Shown: piece by piece, positions 16,366-26,315 of the stretch
Layout of the letters: each line of letters begins with the position of its first letter
Numbering within the stretch: the first letter of the stretch is position 1
Assembly (NCBI GenBank): GCA_028698185.1
Contig: JAQVDW010000003.1
Span: forward strand, 90,001 to 122,000
Length of the DNA: 32,000 bases
Source of the DNA: Erysipelotrichaceae bacterium
Lineage (GTDB): Bacteria > Bacillota_I > Bacilli_A > Erysipelotrichales > Coprobacillaceae
Reading direction: 5' to 3'
Made by a program: the position numbers and the translations under genes
The notes under the pieces: generated by a model
Told to the model about the DNA's origin: nothing
Databases searched by the model: none
Seen by the model: only the letters and a program-made list of their open reading frames with translations

Positions 16366-19029
16366 ATGGCAGAAAAGAAAGTTGCTAAAACTGAAGTTGT
16401 AGCGACGGCAGCGGCTCCTACTGAAGCTGAAACTGACGCGCATATCGATGGTCTTGTAACTAAAGCGTTACAAGCATTGAAAGAATTTGAATCATTTAAT
16501 CAAGAACAAGTTGACCACATCGTGGCTAAATGTTCTGTTGCTGGGTTGGATGCTCATGGTATCTTGGCTGAAGCTGCAGTTAAAGAAACTGGTCGTGGTG
16601 TTTTTGAAGATAAAGCAGTTAAAAACTTATTCGCTTGTGAATACGTAACATCTAACTTGCGTCATACAAAAACTGTTGGAATCATCAGCGAAGATCCAAT
16701 CACTGGAATCACTGAAATTGCTGAACCAGTTGGTGTTGTATGTGGTATCGTCCCAACTACAAACCCTACTTCAACAACAATTTTCAAATGTTTGATCGCA
16801 TTAAAAACTAGAAACCCAATCATCTTCTCATTCCATCCATCAGCTCATGAATGTTCAAAACAAGCTGCAATCGTAATCAGAGATGCTGCAATTGCTGCAG
16901 GTGCTCCTGAAAACTGTATCCAATGGTTGGAAATCAAATCTATGTACGCAACTGGTGCAATCATGAACCACCCAGGTATCGCAACAATCCTGGCAACTGG
17001 TGGTAACGCGATGGTTAAGGCTGCTTACTCATGCGGAAAACCTGCATTGGGTGTAGGGGCTGGTAACGTTCCTGCTTATGTTGAAAAAACAGCTATCATC
17101 AAACGTGCTGCAAATGATATCTTCTTATCAAAAGCGTTCGACAACGGTATGATCTGTGCTTCTGAACAAGCTGCGATCGTAGACCAAGAAATCTATGACG
17201 AATTCAAAGCTGAAATCGGAAGATACCCAGTTCACTTCGCTAACGCTAAAGAAAAGAAATTATTAGAAAAATTCATGTTCGGTGTTGAGAGTGGTGCTCA
17301 AAACGTTGATGCTGCAAAATTAAATGCTGCTGTCGTTGGTAAACCTGCTGCTTGGATCGCTGAACAAGCTGGATTCACTGTAGCTCCTGAAACTCAAGTA
17401 ATCGTTGCTGAATGTGGTGAAGTTGGTCCTAACGAACCATTAACTCGTGAAAAATTATCTCCAGTATTGGCTATGTTGAAATCTACTTCAACTGAAGATG
17501 GTATCGAATTAGCTGGTCAAATGGTTGAATTCAACGGTCTAGGTCACTCGGCTGCAATCCATACAGAAGATCATGACATCACTGTAAGATTTGGAAAAAG
17601 ATGTAAAGCTATCCGTATTATTGAAAACGCACCTTCTACATTCGGTGGAATCGGTTCAGTTTACAATGCCTTCATTCCTTCATTAACTTTAGGATGTGGT
17701 TCTTATGGACACAACTCAGTTTCTAACAACGTAAGTGCGGTAAACTTAATCAATATCAAAAGAATCGGGAGACGTAACAATAATATGCAATGGGTTAAAC
17801 TTCCACCAAAAATCTATTTCGAAAGAAACTCTATCCAATATCTGAAAGATATGAAAGATATGGAAAAATGTATGATCGTAACTGACAAAGCTATGTACAA
17901 TTTAGGTTACGTTGAAAAAATCGAAAACGTTATCCGTCGTCGTAACAACAAAGTAGACATCGAATTATTCTTCGAAGTTGAACCGGATCCATCTTTGGAA
18001 ACAGTATACAAAGGTGTTGAAATCATGAAAAACTTCGCTCCTGATTGCATTATCGCATTAGGTGGTGGTTCTTCAATGGATGCTGCTAAAATCATGTGGT
18101 TATTATACGAAAACCCAACTGTAGTATTCGATGACCTGAAACAAAAATTCATGGATATCCGCAAACGTGCATTCAAATTCCCTGAATTAGGTAAAAAAGC
18201 TAAAATGATCTGTATCCCAACAACTTCAGGTACAGGTTCAGAAGTTACTCCTTTCGCAGTAATCACTGATAAAGCTGAAAACAAAAAATACCCATTGGCT
18301 GACTACGCTTTAACTCCAACTGTAGCAATCGTTGACCCTGAGTTCGTAGCGACTTTACCAAAAGCAGTTGCTGCTGATACTGGTATCGACGTATTGACTC
18401 ATGCGGTTGAAGCATACGTTTCAATCCTGGCTTCTGACTTCACAGACGGATGGGCTAAACAATCAATCAAGATGATCTTCGATTACTTAGAAGAATCAGT
18501 AAATGAAGCAACTCCAATTTCTCGTGAAAAAATGCATAATGCCGCGACTATCGCTGGTATGGCTTTCGCTAATGCTTTCTTAGGTGTAAACCACTCATTA
18601 GCTCATAAAATCGGTGGGGAATTCCACGTACCTCATGGACGTACAAATGGTATCTTATTGCCACACGTAATCCGTTACAACGGAACTATCCCAACTAAAT
18701 TGAATATCTGGCCAAAAATCGAAAACTATAAAGCTGATGTCAAATACATGGAATTGGCTCAATTGATCGGTTTGAATCCAAAAACTCCTGCTGAAGGTGT
18801 TGCTATGTTCGCTGACGCATGTGAAGAATTATGTGCTAAAGTCGGATTGGCTTGCAACTTCGAATCTCAAGGTATCTCTAAAGAAGCTTGGGATGAAGCT
18901 AAACACCGTATCGCTATGAACGCATACGAAGATCAATGTACACCTTGTAACCCAAGAATGCCATTGATCAATGACATGGAAAAAATGCTGGAAAATGTTT
19001 ACAGCTACAAAAGCAAATTTTCTAAATAA
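16366..19029 (+). CDS. adhE: Bifunctional acetaldehyde-CoA/alcohol dehydrogenase
   Basis: 887 aa. N-terminal ALDH domain (MICASEQ catalytic Cys region) fused to a C-terminal Fe-ADH domain (GGGSSMDAAK, HSLAHKIGG, HG). Strong GGAGGA RBS. Confidence 0.96.
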   Translation: MAEKKVAKTEVVATAAAPTEAETDAHIDGLVTKALQALKEFESFNQEQVDHIVAKCSVAGLDAHGILAEAAVKETGRGVFEDKAVKNLFACEYVTSNLRHTKTVGIISEDPITGITEIAEPVGVVCGIVPTTNPTSTTIFKCLIALKTRNPIIFSFHPSAHECSKQAAIVIRDAAIAAGAPENCIQWLEIKSMYATGAIMNHPGIATILATGGNAMVKAAYSCGKPALGVGAGNVPAYVEKTAIIKRAANDIFLSKAFDNGMICASEQAAIVDQEIYDEFKAEIGRYPVHFANAKEKKLLEKFMFGVESGAQNVDAAKLNAAVVGKPAAWIAEQAGFTVAPETQVIVAECGEVGPNEPLTREKLSPVLAMLKSTSTEDGIELAGQMVEFNGLGHSAAIHTEDHDITVRFGKRCKAIRIIENAPSTFGGIGSVYNAFIPSLTLGCGSYGHNSVSNNVSAVNLINIKRIGRRNNNMQWVKLPPKIYFERNSIQYLKDMKDMEKCMIVTDKAMYNLGYVEKIENVIRRRNNKVDIELFFEVEPDPSLETVYKGVEIMKNFAPDCIIALGGGSSMDAAKIMWLLYENPTVVFDDLKQKFMDIRKRAFKFPELGKKAKMICIPTTSGTGSEVTPFAVITDKAENKKYPLADYALTPTVAIVDPEFVATLPKAVAADTGIDVLTHAVEAYVSILASDFTDGWAKQSIKMIFDYLEESVNEATPISREKMHNAATIAGMAFANAFLGVNHSLAHKIGGEFHVPHGRTNGILLPHVIRYNGTIPTKLNIWPKIENYKADVKYMELAQLIGLNPKTPAEGVAMFADACEELCAKVGLACNFESQGISKEAWDEAKHRIAMNAYEDQCTPCNPRMPLINDMEKMLENVYSYKSKFSK

Positions 19030-19062: not shown

Positions 19063-19253
19063 CTTTGGTTATGTTAAAGTGAGGTAAATGCATACCTCAA
19101 TCATTTTCGGTGGGATCTCGATTAGGGAATAATTTTATGGAATTGTAGTAAATAATGGTAAATGGGCTGATTGGACCATTTGCCACAATTCAGTCATATT
19201 TTCCAAGTATGATATGATTGCAAATAAGAAAATTCAACTTCAGGAGGTTTGCT

Positions 19254-20120
19254 ATGAAAATAGTAATAAAAATGTTGGTCGATGTGACAATGATGGCCTT
19301 GTTCTTGCTTTTGATGTTTGGCTACAAGCTTTCACCGCTTTTTCACGAGATTGCCGGAATAGCCATCGGTGTCGTTTTCATGGTTCATATTCTATTGAAT
19401 CTGAAGGCAACCCAGGGAATATTGGGGTCATTGGCTTCTGGCCGTCTTAAGGGGGCGACCAAGGTCAATGCGATTTTGGATGTGATGCTGTTGGTCATGA
19501 TGCCTTTGGATATCATCAGTGGTCTGTTGGATTCCAAGTTCATCCTTTACAGCCCCTATAACTCCCTCATCTCAACCGTGCACCACGTATTTTCCTGGAT
19601 TGTCTTCGCGATCATCGCGGGGCATCTGTACCTGCATCTCAATTACTTGAAGGCGACCATAAAGTCCAAGTTCATGCGCGGGAAACAGTCCAAAGGGAAT
19701 GCCCTTGCTCTGATGGGGTTGTTGACGGTGGTCGGCGGGCTGTTCTTGAATTCATTCCTGCTGGTCCTCAACATCAACAACGATTCAGACATGGAATCGA
19801 ATGTCAGTGACTTGGATGATGATGACTCCGCATCTTCAACCGAAGATGACCAGATCGCTGACTCTTCATCAGGAGCTACGGATGACGACCAGTCGACTAC
19901 AGACGGTGGTGGAACAACTGACAAGACCATAACTCTAAGCGAGTATCTCAAGGGTTTAAACTGTGATGGCTGTGGCCGTCGTTGTTCTCTTGCGAACCCG
20001 AGATGTGGAATCGGTGAAAACCAGGCTGAACAGGCAACTTTGGATTATGAAAGACTCTATGGCCAAATTGACTCAAGCAATACCAGCCTTGTGGCTGCAA
20101 CAATAAGCTCGAGGGAATAA
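19254..20120 (+). CDS. DUF4405-like 5-TM His-rich membrane protein with an acidic D/S/T tail and a CxxCx3Cx6C motif
   Basis: Five hydrophobic helices carrying conserved-looking His residues (HEIAG, VHILLN, VHHVF, GHLYLH). Tail is NNDSDMESNVSDLDDDDSASSTEDDQIADSSSGATDDDQSTTDGGGTTD, followed by CDGCGRRCSLANPRC. ATG 19254 with CAGGAGG RBS is preferred over the track start at 19218. Confidence 0.6.
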   Translation: MKIVIKMLVDVTMMALFLLLMFGYKLSPLFHEIAGIAIGVVFMVHILLNLKATQGILGSLASGRLKGATKVNAILDVMLLVMMPLDIISGLLDSKFILYSPYNSLISTVHHVFSWIVFAIIAGHLYLHLNYLKATIKSKFMRGKQSKGNALALMGLLTVVGGLFLNSFLLVLNINNDSDMESNVSDLDDDDSASSTEDDQIADSSSGATDDDQSTTDGGGTTDKTITLSEYLKGLNCDGCGRRCSLANPRCGIGENQAEQATLDYERLYGQIDSSNTSLVAATISSRE

Positions 20121-20145
20121 AATTCACTAGTTTTTATCTGAATAA

Positions 20146-20154
20146 TGTTATAAT
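20146..20154 (+). promoter_or_regulatory. Candidate extended -10 promoter for the two-component operon
   Basis: TGtTATAAT exactly. No convincing -35. No terminator between the DUF4405 gene and this site. Confidence 0.45.
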
Positions 20155-20169
20155 CTAATTAACCTAAGA

Positions 20170-20196
20170 CTTTAAGTAAGTTTTAGGTTTTAATGG
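20170..20196 (+). promoter_or_regulatory. Shared 27-nt element, copy A (direct repeats TTTAAGT / TTTAGGT, 11-bp period)
   Basis: CTTTAAGTAAGTTTTAGGTTTTAATGG is 21/27 identical, ungapped, to copy B at 22150-22176. Ends 23 nt before the regulator ATG. Confidence 0.5.
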
Positions 20197-20219
20197 TATT
20201 ACTTAATTGGGGTGAAAAT

Positions 20220-20897
20220 ATGAGAATTTTACTGGCTGAAGATGAACGCGATATCGCAAATGTTTTGCAGGTAGTATTAAAACGCAATCACTATGAGGTT
20301 GATTGGGTCGGCAATGGAGTCGCTTTTGTAGACTATGTCGAAACAGGGAATTATGATCTGGCGGTCCTGGATATAATGATGCCCAAGATGGATGGCTTAA
20401 GCGCATTGAAGATAATCCGGGAAAGGGGATATGCGATTCCGGTAATCCTGTTGACGGCAAAAAGCGAGATCGATGACAAGGTAAATGGGTTAGATTCGGG
20501 CAGTGACGATTATCTGACCAAACCCTTTGCGACAAAAGAACTGTTGGCGCGGATCCGAATGCTTCTGCGGCGGAATAAAACTACGGTCGATAATGAACTT
20601 GCTTATGGGAATATTGCATTGTCCCGGGTTACCTATGTGCTTAAAGGTCCAAAACAAGAGTTCAAGCTGGCTTCAAAAGAGTTCCAATTGATCGAACTGC
20701 TCCTACAGCAGCCTGGCGCTGTCATTTCCACTGAGACGTTCATGGATAAAATATGGGGATATCAGAGCGAAAGTGAACTCAACGTGGTGTGGACCCATAT
20801 CTCCTATATCCGAAAGAAGCTCAAGGAAATAGGCTCCAACGTGACAATAAAGGCATCGCGGGGCGCGGGGTACTATTTGGAGGTAAACGATGATTAA
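20220..20897 (+). CDS. OmpR/PhoB-family response regulator
   Basis: Receiver domain (LLAEDE, LAVLDIMMPKMDG phospho-Asp, LTAKS, KPF) plus a winged-helix output domain (LSRVTYVL..., GAGYYLE). ATG 20220 (MRILLAEDE). Confidence 0.92.
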   Translation: MRILLAEDERDIANVLQVVLKRNHYEVDWVGNGVAFVDYVETGNYDLAVLDIMMPKMDGLSALKIIRERGYAIPVILLTAKSEIDDKVNGLDSGSDDYLTKPFATKELLARIRMLLRRNKTTVDNELAYGNIALSRVTYVLKGPKQEFKLASKEFQLIELLLQQPGAVISTETFMDKIWGYQSESELNVVWTHISYIRKKLKEIGSNVTIKASRGAGYYLEVNDD

Positions 20898-22122
20898 GAA
20901 ACTGCAACGGCGCTTTATTGTTATTGCTTTGGTCAGCGTTTCGGTGGTTTTTGTGACCATAATGGGCACGTTGCTTGTAAGCAACTACCTGAATATTGTC
21001 GAAAAGGCCAGCAACTCGATCGATCTTATCTATGTCTCGGCCGATCAGCTTGAAGCGGGACTATCCTACCGTGATTCAGGAAAAAAGCCGCCAACCGACG
21101 GATTGGATGTAAACTATGATTTCAGGGGACCAGAAGGTATTTTTTCATCACGCTTCTTCATTGTGAAACTCACTGACGGGACTGTCAGCGAAGTCAATGT
21201 CGACAACATCAGTGCTATCGATCAGACAAGCGCCGGCGAAATGGCTTTGGAGGTAATCGCCAATGAGGATGGGGTTTATGAGAATTATCGCTACAAGGTG
21301 TTTGACGAAGGGTCGAGCCAAACGGTAGTTTTCATCGACACTTATATGGAAATGCAGTCGTTCTATGAATTTTTGTCAAACACCGCAATCATGGGCGGTT
21401 TTGGTTTGGGAATGTTTATTCTTGTCGCCTGGTTCCTGTCAAAGATGGCAATAAGACCGCTGGTGGAATCGATTGAAAAACAGAAGCAATTCATCACCAA
21501 TGCTTCCCACGAATTGAAGACGCCATTGACTGTCATTTCCGCCAACAATGAAATGATCGAGCTCGATTATGGTCCGAATAACTGGTCCCAGGGGATCGAA
21601 AGGCAGGTTGGAAAAATGAACAAGCTGACGAATTCGCTGGTCACCTTGGCCCGTCTTGACGAACAGGATTATCATGTCGAGCTCAAGGAAATCGATTTGA
21701 GCGGCCTTGTCAAGGAAGTGGTTGATGATTACCGCGACCTGGCTCTTGTTGAAAATAAGGTCTTTGAGTGTGAGTTGGAACCGTTATCCCTCAAGGGCAA
21801 CGAGGAACTGCTCCGCCAGCTGGTTTCCATATTGCTCGACAACGCATTCAAGTATTCAAACAACAAAGGTTGGATCAAGATCCGCCTTAAAGTCGGAAAG
21901 AAGAAAACTCTTATTGTCGAGAACAGTGTGGAAGAAATAATTTCCGGAAGTCATGACGAAGTGTTCGAGCGCTTCACCAGGCTGGAACAGTCCAGGAACT
22001 CGAGTCTGGGTGGCTATGGAGTAGGGTTGGCCATTGCCAAATCAATTGTGGGCAGACACCATGGCAAAATCAAGGCTTATAGCGAAGACAACAACACTTT
22101 TACAATCAGGATTGATTTTTGA
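20890..22122 (+). CDS. Sensor histidine kinase (2 TM, extracytoplasmic domain of about 135 aa, HisKA + HATPase_c)
   Basis: TM helices at about residues 10-31 and 165-187. H-box FITNASHELKTPLT, N-box LLDNAFKY, and G-boxes GGYGVGLAI. 8-nt overlap with the regulator gene. Confidence 0.9.
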   Translation: MIKKLQRRFIVIALVSVSVVFVTIMGTLLVSNYLNIVEKASNSIDLIYVSADQLEAGLSYRDSGKKPPTDGLDVNYDFRGPEGIFSSRFFIVKLTDGTVSEVNVDNISAIDQTSAGEMALEVIANEDGVYENYRYKVFDEGSSQTVVFIDTYMEMQSFYEFLSNTAIMGGFGLGMFILVAWFLSKMAIRPLVESIEKQKQFITNASHELKTPLTVISANNEMIELDYGPNNWSQGIERQVGKMNKLTNSLVTLARLDEQDYHVELKEIDLSGLVKEVVDDYRDLALVENKVFECELEPLSLKGNEELLRQLVSILLDNAFKYSNNKGWIKIRLKVGKKKTLIVENSVEEIISGSHDEVFERFTRLEQSRNSSLGGYGVGLAIAKSIVGRHHGKIKAYSEDNNTFTIRIDF

Positions 22123-22124
22123 TC

Positions 22125-22146
22125 ACGGCTTCGGCCGTTTTTTTTC
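22125..22146 (+). terminator. Small intrinsic terminator after the kinase gene
   Basis: ACGGC-TTCG-GCCGT (UUCG tetraloop) followed by T8. The short stem may be leaky. Confidence 0.6.
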
Positions 22147-22149
22147 TTC

Positions 22150-22176
22150 CTTAAAGTACGTTTAAAGTTTTATTGC
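22150..22176 (+). promoter_or_regulatory. Shared 27-nt element, copy B (TTAAAGT x2, 11-bp period)
   Basis: CTTAAAGTACGTTTAAAGTTTTATTGC. Has a perfect 7-mer direct repeat at 22151-22157 and 22162-22168. Ends 28 nt before the VTC-gene ATG. Confidence 0.5.
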
Positions 22177-22204
22177 TAAGGTGATATTGTAAGGAGTGAA
22201 GAAT

Positions 22205-22951
22205 ATGGCAAATGACAGATTTGAACGCTTGGAATTCAAGTATCTGATTACCAGGCAGCAACAAAAAAAATTACTGGAAGTATTTCCGGGCGAGATCAAA
22301 ATTGACAGTTACGGGCGCACCGATATTTTCAACCTGTATCTCGATACCGATGATTTTCGGCTGATTCGCAATTCGATTGAAAAACCGGTCTATAAGGAAA
22401 AATTGAGGGTCAGATCATACGGCAAGGCGGCAGGCAGGGATCAAGTGTTTATCGAGTTGAAAAAGAAATACAAAGGTGTTGTCTACAAGCGGCGGATAGC
22501 TACAACCCAGGATGAGGCGCTCGATTCGCTGTTGGCAAGAAAGATCGACTGTTCCAGTCAAATTGGCCAGGAAATAGAATATTTCACCAAGTACTACCGT
22601 TCATTAAAACCCAGGATGTTCATCGGCTACGAGCGGGTGGCCTACTTTGATCCAAACAATCCTGATTTCAGGGTTACATTCGACGAAAACATCAGGTACC
22701 GGCTGAATAACCTGACATTGGACTGCAAGAACGAAGGGGCTTTGCTGATCGACAGCGACCACGTCTTGATGGAAATAAAGATTATGGGATCTTTTCCTCT
22801 ATGGCTGGCACAGGCACTGTCCATGTTGGAAATATCCAAATCAAGCTTTTCCAAGTATGGCAATGCATACAAGGAATGTCTTGAAAAGGGCCAGATTGAA
22901 ATCAAGACAAACATCAATTATAACGGACAAGGAGTAGTATCATATGCTTAA
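22205..22951 (+). CDS. VTC-domain protein (polyphosphate-polymerase-like triphosphate tunnel, CYTH/TTM superfamily)
   Basis: FERLEFKYLI first strand, KLRVRSYG, FIELKKKYKGVVYKRR, VLMEIK and SFSKYGNAY, matching my memory of the VTC family profile. AAGGAG RBS 8 nt before ATG 22205. Confidence 0.7.
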   Translation: MANDRFERLEFKYLITRQQQKKLLEVFPGEIKIDSYGRTDIFNLYLDTDDFRLIRNSIEKPVYKEKLRVRSYGKAAGRDQVFIELKKKYKGVVYKRRIATTQDEALDSLLARKIDCSSQIGQEIEYFTKYYRSLKPRMFIGYERVAYFDPNNPDFRVTFDENIRYRLNNLTLDCKNEGALLIDSDHVLMEIKIMGSFPLWLAQALSMLEISKSSFSKYGNAYKECLEKGQIEIKTNINYNGQGVVSYA

Positions 22952-23636
22952 TTCTATTATCGAACAACTTGCAACCACAACCACAAGTCAAATAACACTT
23001 ACATCGTTTTTTACCTGCATGGTTGCAGCGATGGTCATCGGGTTGGTAATCGCCAAAATGTACGAGTACAAAAACAGCTATAACAAGGGTTTTGTGATCA
23101 CCCTGGCAATGCTGCCCTCAATTGTGACGCTGGTAATCATGATGGTCAATGGAAATATCGGAACTGGGGTGGCAGTCGCGGGTGCATTTTCGCTTGTCCG
23201 CTTCCGTTCGCAGCCGGGAAGTGCCCGGGAAATAAACGCGATATTCTTTACGATGGCCACCGGACTGGCCACCGGAATGGGTTATCTGCTTATTGCCGTT
23301 GTTTTCACCGCAATCATGGCGATATTCAATCTGGTGCTTGTAACCAGCGCCTTTGGTGAAGGCGGCGGGACAATCGCGACAAAGGAAATAAGGATCACAA
23401 TTCCGGAAAATCTAGATTATGAAAATGTGTTCAGTGATATTTTTGAAAGGGCGACAAAAAAGTATCGCCTGGTCGAGGTTAAGACAACCAATATGGGGAG
23501 TCTTTTCAAGCTTCGCTATGAAGTCGAATATAAGGAAGGCATATCCGAGAAAGAGCTGATTGACCAGCTGCGCTGTCGCAATGGAAATCTCGAGATATCG
23601 AGCTCGTATGCGGCAGTGGCCATGACCGAGTTGTAA
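22944..23636 (+). CDS. DUF4956-like membrane protein (4 TM plus a C-terminal soluble domain)
   Basis: AVAGAFSLVRFRSQPGSAREINAIFFTMATGLATGMGY core between hydrophobic helices. About 90-aa alpha/beta-looking tail. 8-nt overlap with the VTC gene. The VTC + DUF4956 gene pairing is recurrent in bacteria, as far as I recall. Confidence 0.65.
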   Translation: MLNSIIEQLATTTTSQITLTSFFTCMVAAMVIGLVIAKMYEYKNSYNKGFVITLAMLPSIVTLVIMMVNGNIGTGVAVAGAFSLVRFRSQPGSAREINAIFFTMATGLATGMGYLLIAVVFTAIMAIFNLVLVTSAFGEGGGTIATKEIRITIPENLDYENVFSDIFERATKKYRLVEVKTTNMGSLFKLRYEVEYKEGISEKELIDQLRCRNGNLEISSSYAAVAMTEL

Positions 23637-23659
23637 ACGGCAATTATTGCCGTTTTTTT
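23636..23659 (+). terminator. Intrinsic terminator after the DUF4956 gene
   Basis: AACGGCAA-TTA-TTGCCGTT followed by a T-run to 23659. Confidence 0.8.
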
Positions 23660-23741: not shown

Positions 23742-24530
23742 ATGAATGTTCTGGTAGCTTGTTCTAATCCAATCAGAATAAAAGACGAATATTTTATTGA
23801 AAGTCTGGGATTTATTCTTGGGGATAAGGTAGTTGTCAGCGAATATCTTGGCAGTGATGATGCCAGGGCCAAAGCGGCGGAGTTGAATCATTATTTTGAA
23901 ATAAATGCTGCCAATATATTTGATATTAGCGGCGGCGACTTGGCCAACGGCGTTTTGGATTATCTTGATTATCATGTCATCACAAAATCTAAAAGCATAT
24001 TTTATGGCTATAGCGATCTGACCACAGTGCTCAATGCAATCTACTCCCAGACAAAAAAGCAATCATGGTATTATCAGTTGCGGTTTTGTAGCTATTATCC
24101 TGAAATACTTGAAAATATCCTGAACCATGACGATCATCTGGAATATGAATTCGTCCAGGGTGAAAAAATGGCCGGAATTGCCATTGGCGGCAATATCCGC
24201 TGCTTTTTGAAGTTGGCGGGAACCAGATATATGCCGGATTTTACAGGCCATATCCTGTTTATGGAGGCCTACAGCAGCAATAAATATCAGGTAATCTCTA
24301 TGATCAACCAGCTGGCCCAAATGGGTGCATTTGACAAGGTCGAGGGATTGATTTTGGGAACTTTCACCAAACTTGACCAGAGCGGTGACCGTGATTTTTT
24401 GGTTACCAAGATAAGGGAGTTTTGTTCAAAACCGATCGCGACCACCCAAGATATTGGCCACCATCAATGGTCGAAAGGCTTTGCGGTTGGCCGGTATTAT
24501 CAATTTGATAACAATTCTATTCGGGATTAG
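23742..24530 (+). CDS. LD-carboxypeptidase-like S66 peptidase (short form)
   Basis: GGDLANGVLDYLDY, FYGYSDLTTV (nucleophile Ser), LFMEAYS (Glu) and DIGHH (His). GAGGGTGA RBS. Confidence 0.65.
   Translation: MNVLVACSNPIRIKDEYFIESLGFILGDKVVVSEYLGSDDARAKAAELNHYFEINAANIFDISGGDLANGVLDYLDYHVITKSKSIFYGYSDLTTVLNAIYSQTKKQSWYYQLRFCSYYPEILENILNHDDHLEYEFVQGEKMAGIAIGGNIRCFLKLAGTRYMPDFTGHILFMEAYSSNKYQVISMINQLAQMGAFDKVEGLILGTFTKLDQSGDRDFLVTKIREFCSKPIATTQDIGHHQWSKGFAVGRYYQFDNNSIRD

Positions 24531-24590: not shown

Positions 24591-26315
<1,725 letters not shown>

Follow-up and report, generated by a model that had tools for sequence, protein, structure and literature searches.

A shared direct-repeat box predicted to join a two-component operon, a VTC-DUF4956 unit and a Cthe_2159 lipoprotein gene in one Bacillota regulon

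Direct repeats of two 11-bp units make up both the Pho box of Escherichia coli PhoB and the sites bound by PhoP in Bacillus subtilis, and they take the place of the -35 element at a fixed short interval upstream of the -10. The regulator acts there as a phosphorylated head-to-tail dimer that activates the sigma-70/sigma-A polymerase, and the phoBR operon is itself autoregulated. The phoPQ operon of Salmonella and E. coli is served by one constitutive promoter and a second that is activated by the regulator. A further site of this kind, the CiaR box of streptococci, was defined experimentally as TTTAAG-N5-TTTAAG, and later as NTTAAG-N5-TTTAAG, and is activating (PMC3091779, PMC8317062). With regard to the genes considered here, Gram-positive Pel loci include accessory cotH, polyphosphate-polymerase-like, DUF4956 and DUF4832 genes (bioRxiv 10.1101/768473), and the NELoc-2 locus of Clostridium perfringens contains a VTC-'tubulin'-CotH cluster (PMC2879425). 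Our literature search found no paper describing the VTC-linked two-component system treated below, or its box.

The window analysed here is a stretch of DNA of 32,000 nucleotides belonging to a genome that we denote G000; related genomes are denoted G001, G002 and so on, and individual loci carry L numbers. Within the window, a regulator-kinase operon and a VTC-DUF4956 unit are arranged with their neighbours as follows.

16366-19029: AdhE
19218-20120: membrane protein of 300 aa with an acidic, Cys-rich tail
20170-20196, plus strand: copy A, the regulator box, CTTTAAGTAAGTTTTAGGTTTTAATGG, with half-sites TTTAAGT (20171-20177) and TTTAGGT (20182-20188) at an 11-bp period
20220-20897, plus strand: OmpR-family response regulator, 225 aa (Pfam Response_reg 1e-31, Trans_reg_C 2.4e-21)
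20890-22122, plus strand: sensor histidine kinase, 410 aa (Pfam HisKA, HATPase_c)
22125-22146, plus strand: intrinsic terminator of the kinase gene, ACGGCTTCGGCCGT plus a T-run, stem at 22125-22138
22150-22176, plus strand: copy B, the regulator box, CTTAAAGTACGTTTAAAGTTTTATTGC, with TTAAAGT at 22151-22157 and again at 22162-22168, an 11-bp period
22205-22951, plus strand: VTC-domain protein of triphosphate-tunnel fold, Vtc4-like, 248 aa (Pfam VTC 1.6e-39)
22944-23636, plus strand: DUF4956 membrane protein, 230 aa (Pfam DUF4956 2.9e-15)
23635-23655: terminator closing the DUF4956 gene
23742-24530: LD-carboxypeptidase
24702-26315: CTP synthase

The regulator carries its phospho-acceptor, Asp51, in the motif LAVLDIMMP, and its nearest relatives in the PDB are DrrD, PhoP, MtrA and BasR. 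The kinase has a loop of about 130 aa between two hydrophobic segments, and its gene overlaps that of the regulator by 8 nt, the same overlap as is found between the VTC and DUF4956 genes; the terminator behind the kinase gene shields the VTC unit against read-through. No specific NCBIfam family was found for the regulator, the kinase, the VTC and DUF4956 proteins or the lipoprotein introduced below, the top match of the regulator being RppA at 212 bits against a cut-off of 250 bits. The protein encoded at 19218-20120, directly 5' of the regulator gene, gives a weak cytochrome-b561-like match (E 1.6e-4) and has an acidic tract of D/S/T residues as well as a tail of the form CxxCx3Cx6C. Its gene has no box, and its linkage with the module is confined to this genus (G001, G002); since no terminator separates it from the regulator gene, read-through into the regulator operon is possible.

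The original prediction started from the likeness of copies A and B, and on re-reading the letters, the coordinates and the match at 21 of 27 ungapped positions all proved exact. Both copies do contain paired 7-mers one 11-bp turn apart, and direct repeats of this period, adjacent to a regulator with Response_reg and Trans_reg_C domains, agree with the tandem-site geometry of the OmpR/PhoB type that had been proposed. The spacings had also been given correctly: the regulator ATG at 20220 lies 23 nt past the end of copy A, the VTC ATG at 22205 lies 28 nt past the end of copy B, and copy B, described as following the kinase terminator, begins 4 nt past its T-run. When both intergenic sequences (99 nt at 23% GC and 82 nt at 35% GC) were subjected to 2000 dinucleotide-preserving shuffles, the best ungapped 27-mer match averaged 16.2 +/- 1.1, and 21 or more identities were reached in 2 of the 2000. 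The similarity of the copies is real, and far beyond chance. An ATG inside copy A, at 20193, was considered as the start of the regulator and rejected, given that it is out of frame in G002 and that the ribosome-binding site serves 20220.

From comparisons among genomes, we think it quite likely that both copies are boxes of about 19 bp, each composed of two TTWARGT direct repeats, for the regulator encoded at 20220-20897, and that this regulator activates its own operon, the VTC-DUF4956 unit and a lipoprotein gene that is preceded by a third box.

G000 contig C10, 7558-7577 (= L039:3559-3578): third box, TTTTAAGTATATTTTAACTT, outside the window on the same contig, about 102 kb upstream

Under this reading, the partner kinase would phosphorylate Asp51 of the regulator and a head-to-tail regulator dimer would bind the box, which would stand in for the missing -35 and recruit RNA polymerase with sigma-A to a -10 that is weak or TGn-extended, a class II, Pho-box-like mode of activation. 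Three transcription units may respond: the regulator-kinase operon, positively autoregulated from a promoter P2 and supplied with a basal level by a promoter P1 upstream of it; the terminator-insulated VTC-DUF4956 operon; and the Cthe_2159 lipoprotein gene. As the latter two units are insulated by terminators and have no -35, they should be silent without active regulator. The promoter elements concerned are as follows.

20146-20154, plus strand: P1, a predicted extended -10 TGTTATAAT upstream of copy A, without a good -35 and with a predicted start at about 20161
20197-20202, plus strand: P2, predicted box-dependent -10 TATTAC, with TG at 20194-20195 and a predicted start at about 20209
22177-22182, plus strand: predicted box-dependent -10 TAAGGT of the VTC-DUF4956 unit, at the 8-nt spacing, with a predicted start at about 22189

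An alignment of 34 box sites from many Bacillota yields the consensus TTTtAAGTt.aTTTAAGGTT....tg.TAtaaT, in which 8 nt separate the end of the second half-site from a -10 hexamer at alignment positions 28-33 (its initial T is kept in 31 of the 34 sites, and the A and the closing T in 32 each), and in which 20 of the sites also show the TG of an extended -10 at positions 25-26. The half-site period is 11 bp, with the exception of the regulator-gene site of locus L029, where it is 10 bp. A consensus scan gave no -35/-10 promoter pair in either intergenic region, and the original remark that no sigma-A -35 precedes copy B holds, there being no TTGACA-type promoter at that place. Relative to the predicted starts, the box would occupy about -39 to -21, in place of a -35, and an arrangement with the second half-site 8 nt before the -10 points to the pho-box type of activator-dependent promoter.

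All three -10 hexamers predicted in G000 are weak, i.e. TATTAC, TAAGGT and, for the lipoprotein gene, TAACAT (predicted start at about C10:7597); at the position of the VTC-unit TAAGGT, G001 reads TAAATT. The VTC ribosome-binding site, AAGGAG, lies at 22191-22196. The predicted leaders of about 10-18 nt are very short and would place the Shine-Dalgarno sequence close to the 5' end of the transcript, which, like the weak hexamers, counts against our explanation. In other loci, distances from box to ATG cluster at 58-76 nt. In all three genomes of the genus (G000, G001 and G002) the string AATGYTATAAT occurs unchanged between flanks that vary, which marks it out as a separate promoter, P1, likely to be the basal promoter of the regulator-kinase operon. 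The original prediction had left two roles to copy A, a negative one or a second, activator-dependent start; the fixed distance to the -10 favours the second start, and some repression may accompany it, since copy A, counted from the inferred P1 start, would cover about +9 to +30 and bound regulator might hinder P1 too.

That the cognate regulator binds the box mainly in order to repress, blocking TGTTATAAT transcripts at copy A and occluding polymerase at copy B, strikes us as unlikely. Such a role would suit the location of copy A downstream of a conserved extended -10 promoter, and CiaR is known to repress some promoters, e.g. manLMN, from differently placed boxes (PMC8317062). However, a fixed distance from box to -10 in 34 sites, with the -35 replaced, is the signature of activation, and outside the genus, in loci such as L037, L032 and L044, a single -10 is visible and the regulator-gene box stands upstream of it. 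Moreover, copy B and the third site both follow terminators, where there is no other promoter to repress.

The predicted link between the box and the adjacent regulator can be followed into other genomes. We searched 60 related genomes with the VTC protein, fetched the wider loci, and scored sites with a weight matrix of 20 nt and 21 bits of information built from orthologous sites. The regulator-kinase pair is linked to VTC-DUF4956 in six genomes from five genera: G001 and G002, of the same genus as G000, and G008, G012, G025 and G055, of other genera, one of them in another family. A TTTAAGT-N4-TTTARGT-like direct repeat occurs before both the regulator and the VTC genes in all six, and every one of the six VTC loci linked to a two-component system has a site of 16.5-29.2 bits at 55-68 nt before VTC, whereas a site of at least 15 bits precedes VTC in 0 of 7 VTC-DUF4956 loci that have no two-component system nearby. 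Half-sites are conserved and spacers vary; within the genus (G001, G002), copies A and B are kept as their flanks diverge.

A wider sample of 80 public loci, amounting to 1.52 million positions, was fetched with the regulator as query. Those with a regulator identity of at least 50% come from Lachnospiraceae, Oscillospiraceae, Ruminococcus, Roseburia inulinivorans, Bittarella, Agathobacter and others, and mostly show the gene order regulator, kinase, VTC, DUF4956, Cthe_2159 protein. Among them, 18 of 23 VTC upstream regions contain a site of at least 15 bits (median best score 20.2), with the boxes of those 18 lying 55-109 nt before VTC, as do 13 of 35 regulator upstream regions, with many more weaker sites at an equal distance. 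Below 48% regulator identity, the same threshold is reached in 1 of 45 regulator upstream regions. Over all 80 loci, 31 of the 47 matches of at least 15 bits fall in the 58 target upstream regions, which account for 0.8% of positions; with 0.13 expected there, the enrichment is about 240-fold. The same regions hold 17 of the 19 matches of at least 20 bits. Both the enrichment upstream of VTC and two-component genes and the presence of the motif in orthologous loci, before regulator and VTC genes and down to about 50% regulator identity, were looked for as checks on the original prediction and were found; the comparative genomics thereby argues for its proposal that the regulator autoregulates and would also control VTC-DUF4956. 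In one Bacillota MAG (L042:7010-7052), two boxes, i.e. four half-sites, stand in tandem 23 nt apart before VTC, an arrangement that suggests that in some lineages two dimers bind cooperatively.

The same data bear on who binds the box. We regard it as very unlikely that another DNA-binding protein, be it an OmpR-family paralogue or a global regulator, owns the box and that the neighbouring regulator is a co-regulated passenger. Candidates for such a protein exist, at least five further OmpR-type regulators being encoded in G000, and the motif does equal the box that a different regulator, CiaR, uses (PMC3091779). Yet the box tracks this particular regulator across families (six of six with it, none of seven without), it precedes the regulator's own gene, and the nearest paralogue in G000 is only 37% identical. 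Furthermore, the regulators of box-bearing loci form a clade with a distinctive recognition helix, NVVW[VT][YH]ISY[LI]RKKL, from which distant OmpR-type regulators retrieved in the same search differ.

If the neighbouring regulator is the owner of the box, the question becomes how specific the motif is within its genome. Scanning the 2.06 Mb of G000 with the full matrix gave 28.3 bits for copy A, 26.6 for copy B and 23.4 for the third site, with the next best at 18.2 and, among the matches listed, nothing below the three box sites exceeding that value. Because the relatives' sites that went into the matrix were chosen by eye as resembling the G000 copies, there is some circularity in the high ranks of copies A and B, of which the third site and the negative controls are free. 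A second matrix, made from seven sites of four other genera only and scored over 4.12 million positions, returned the same top three, namely copy A (25.4 bits), the third site (22.1) and copy B (20.4), after which the score drops. With this matrix, copies A and B rank first and third in the whole genome with one functionally linked site between them; the possibility, raised originally, that the motif is scattered through AT-rich DNA is contradicted by three box sites that outrank the rest of the genome.

A loose IUPAC pattern, TTWARGTNNNNTTWARGT, is not enriched, with 4 matches in G000 and 1-5 in each of five relatives as against 0-6 for the reversed control, and specificity consequently rests on the weighted matrix together with position. 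The extra matches to this pattern comprise a palindrome before a MerR-type gene and others in coding DNA or over an ordinary -10. The palindrome, ACTTAAAGTTAACTTTAAGT, lies on the minus strand at G000:C34:22428-22445, before a MerR-type regulator gene (YSIGEVAKILGITPSTL...), and the same 18-mer is present in G001; it is an accidental match to the pattern and is probably a MerR operator.

Although both regions are AT-rich and the loose pattern also matches unrelated places, chance or low complexity in intergenic DNA is scarcely credible as an explanation, being effectively refuted by the 2 in 2000 shuffles, the enrichment, the genome ranks and the six of six against none of seven, and also opposed by half-sites that are kept where spacers vary, and a shared RNA leader element is no more credible, since the boxes lie upstream of the predicted VTC and lipoprotein starts and so would not be transcribed there, and no Rfam family matches. 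An RNA element had been considered as a candidate and was rejected after positions 20000-22400 had been compared with Rfam at E <= 1, the only result being a spurious match to a viral pseudoknot.

The third site, which we attribute to the same regulator as copies A and B, directly follows a terminator, and 58 nt separate it from the ATG of a gene for a lipoprotein of 511 aa and of the beta-helix type (signal MKKIIAVFTAFIIAGC; Pfam Cthe_2159 8.9e-74). In most other Bacillota the Cthe_2159 gene occupies third place in the VTC operon, and in G008, G012 and G025 it is found directly 3' of DUF4956, whereas in G001 and G002 it lies about 100 kb off, as in G000. A box of 22.6 bits precedes it in G002; upstream of the G001 gene there is no box, and a TTGACT...TATAAT promoter is present instead (L120, G001:C1:218685-223214). 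The loss of the box in G001 as against its retention in G002 looks like regulon rewiring within one genus. A box of 28.7 bits is also found in L064, before a lone gene for a 695-aa lipoprotein, the C-terminal part of which reads like the same beta-helix repeats.

Two further genes preceded by a box were observed in related genomes. In G012, a box spaced correctly to a TATAAT (L210:1501-1518, equivalent to G012:C44:16849-16866) precedes a gene for a 185-aa RelQ/RelP-like small alarmone synthetase, which is inserted between the kinase and VTC genes and is predicted to be a lineage-specific extra member of the regulon; the RelQ-like gene of G000 is located elsewhere. In G001, the box TTTAAGTTAATTTAAAGT (L220, G001:C1:963394-963411, minus strand) lies 8 nt before a TATAAT, ahead of a gene for a GT2 glycosyltransferase of 376 aa, the tail of which passes the membrane several times. 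This glycosyltransferase is a possible extra target in G001, and no close orthologue of it was found in G000 (20% identity).

The regulatory logic set out here is ordinary for the OmpR family, and the new part is a proposed regulon for the VTC-DUF4956-lipoprotein module. The box would place bacterial VTC, DUF4956 and the Cthe_2159 lipoprotein, three families so far uncharacterised, under a single dedicated sensor system, in a manner that spans Lachnospiraceae, Oscillospiraceae, Ruminococcus, Roseburia and the family of G000, and that holds with the lipoprotein gene 102 kb away. It also offers experimenters a handle, as a constitutively active regulator should induce the module and the box could be used as a reporter for the inducing signal. 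A more tentative idea, which we put forward as a conjecture with the balance of probability against it, is that of a widespread and previously undescribed Bacillota regulon in which an envelope-sensing two-component system switches on a Vtc4-like polymerase, its DUF4956 partner and a polyanion- or carbohydrate-binding beta-helix lipoprotein, together forming inducible machinery by which polyphosphate, or another phosphate polymer related to it, is put on the surface of the Gram-positive cell, joined in some lineages by a RelQ-type synthetase. The yeast VTC complex couples polyphosphate synthesis to membrane transit (PMC9911596), and by analogy DUF4956 might possibly serve as a conduit. If this conjecture is true, the box together with a kinase-on or phosphomimetic regulator would be a switch with which to turn the system on in the laboratory.

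Of the described systems, the Pel loci and NELoc-2 resemble the present locus in that a VTC-domain and DUF4956 pair stands beside predicted membrane, cell-wall or polysaccharide-synthesis genes. Their reports, however, describe no dedicated two-component system or box, and their third partner is CotH rather than the Cthe_2159 lipoprotein found here. The likeness to phoPQ lies in promoter arrangement, with a basal promoter that keeps a low level and a box-dependent one that gives a surge by positive feedback, roles that P1 and P2, both predicted, would fill at this locus; the difference is that the basal promoter here lies upstream of the box, such that bound regulator could impede it. From the Pho boxes the present box departs in its half-sites, which are CTGTCAT for PhoB and TTAACA-like for PhoP as against TTWARGT, and the regulator scores 173 bits with the NCBIfam PhoB model, for which the cut-off is 296 bits.

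The closest likeness is with CiaR. For this comparison we used genes from Streptococcus mitis-group genomes that we take to be ciaR, being 99-100% identical to the CiaR sequence used as a probe. Hexamer, direct repeat and 11-bp register are all equal between the CiaR box and the consensus here, TT[TA]A[AG]G-N5-TT[TA]A[AG]G, and the recognition helices are alike and not equal, with NVVWVYISYLRKKL here (NVVWTHISYIRKKL in G000) against SVVEVYVSKVRKKL in CiaR. As in the geometry described above, the CiaR box lies just upstream of an activated -10, and CiaRH feeds back on its own operon (PMC3091779, PMC8317062). Nevertheless, the G000 regulator is 37% identical to CiaR, a level that its closest paralogue in the same genome equals, and orthology was rejected on this identity; a quick tree from a biased sample places CiaR loosely near the regulator clade (support 0.83). 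The two also differ in their targets, which are VTC, DUF4956 and the Cthe_2159 lipoprotein here and htrA, csRNAs and others there, and in their hosts, gut and rumen Bacillota as opposed to streptococci. A regulator only 37% identical to CiaR with the same TTTAAG-N5-TTTAAG box may be useful for predicting helix specificity in the OmpR family.
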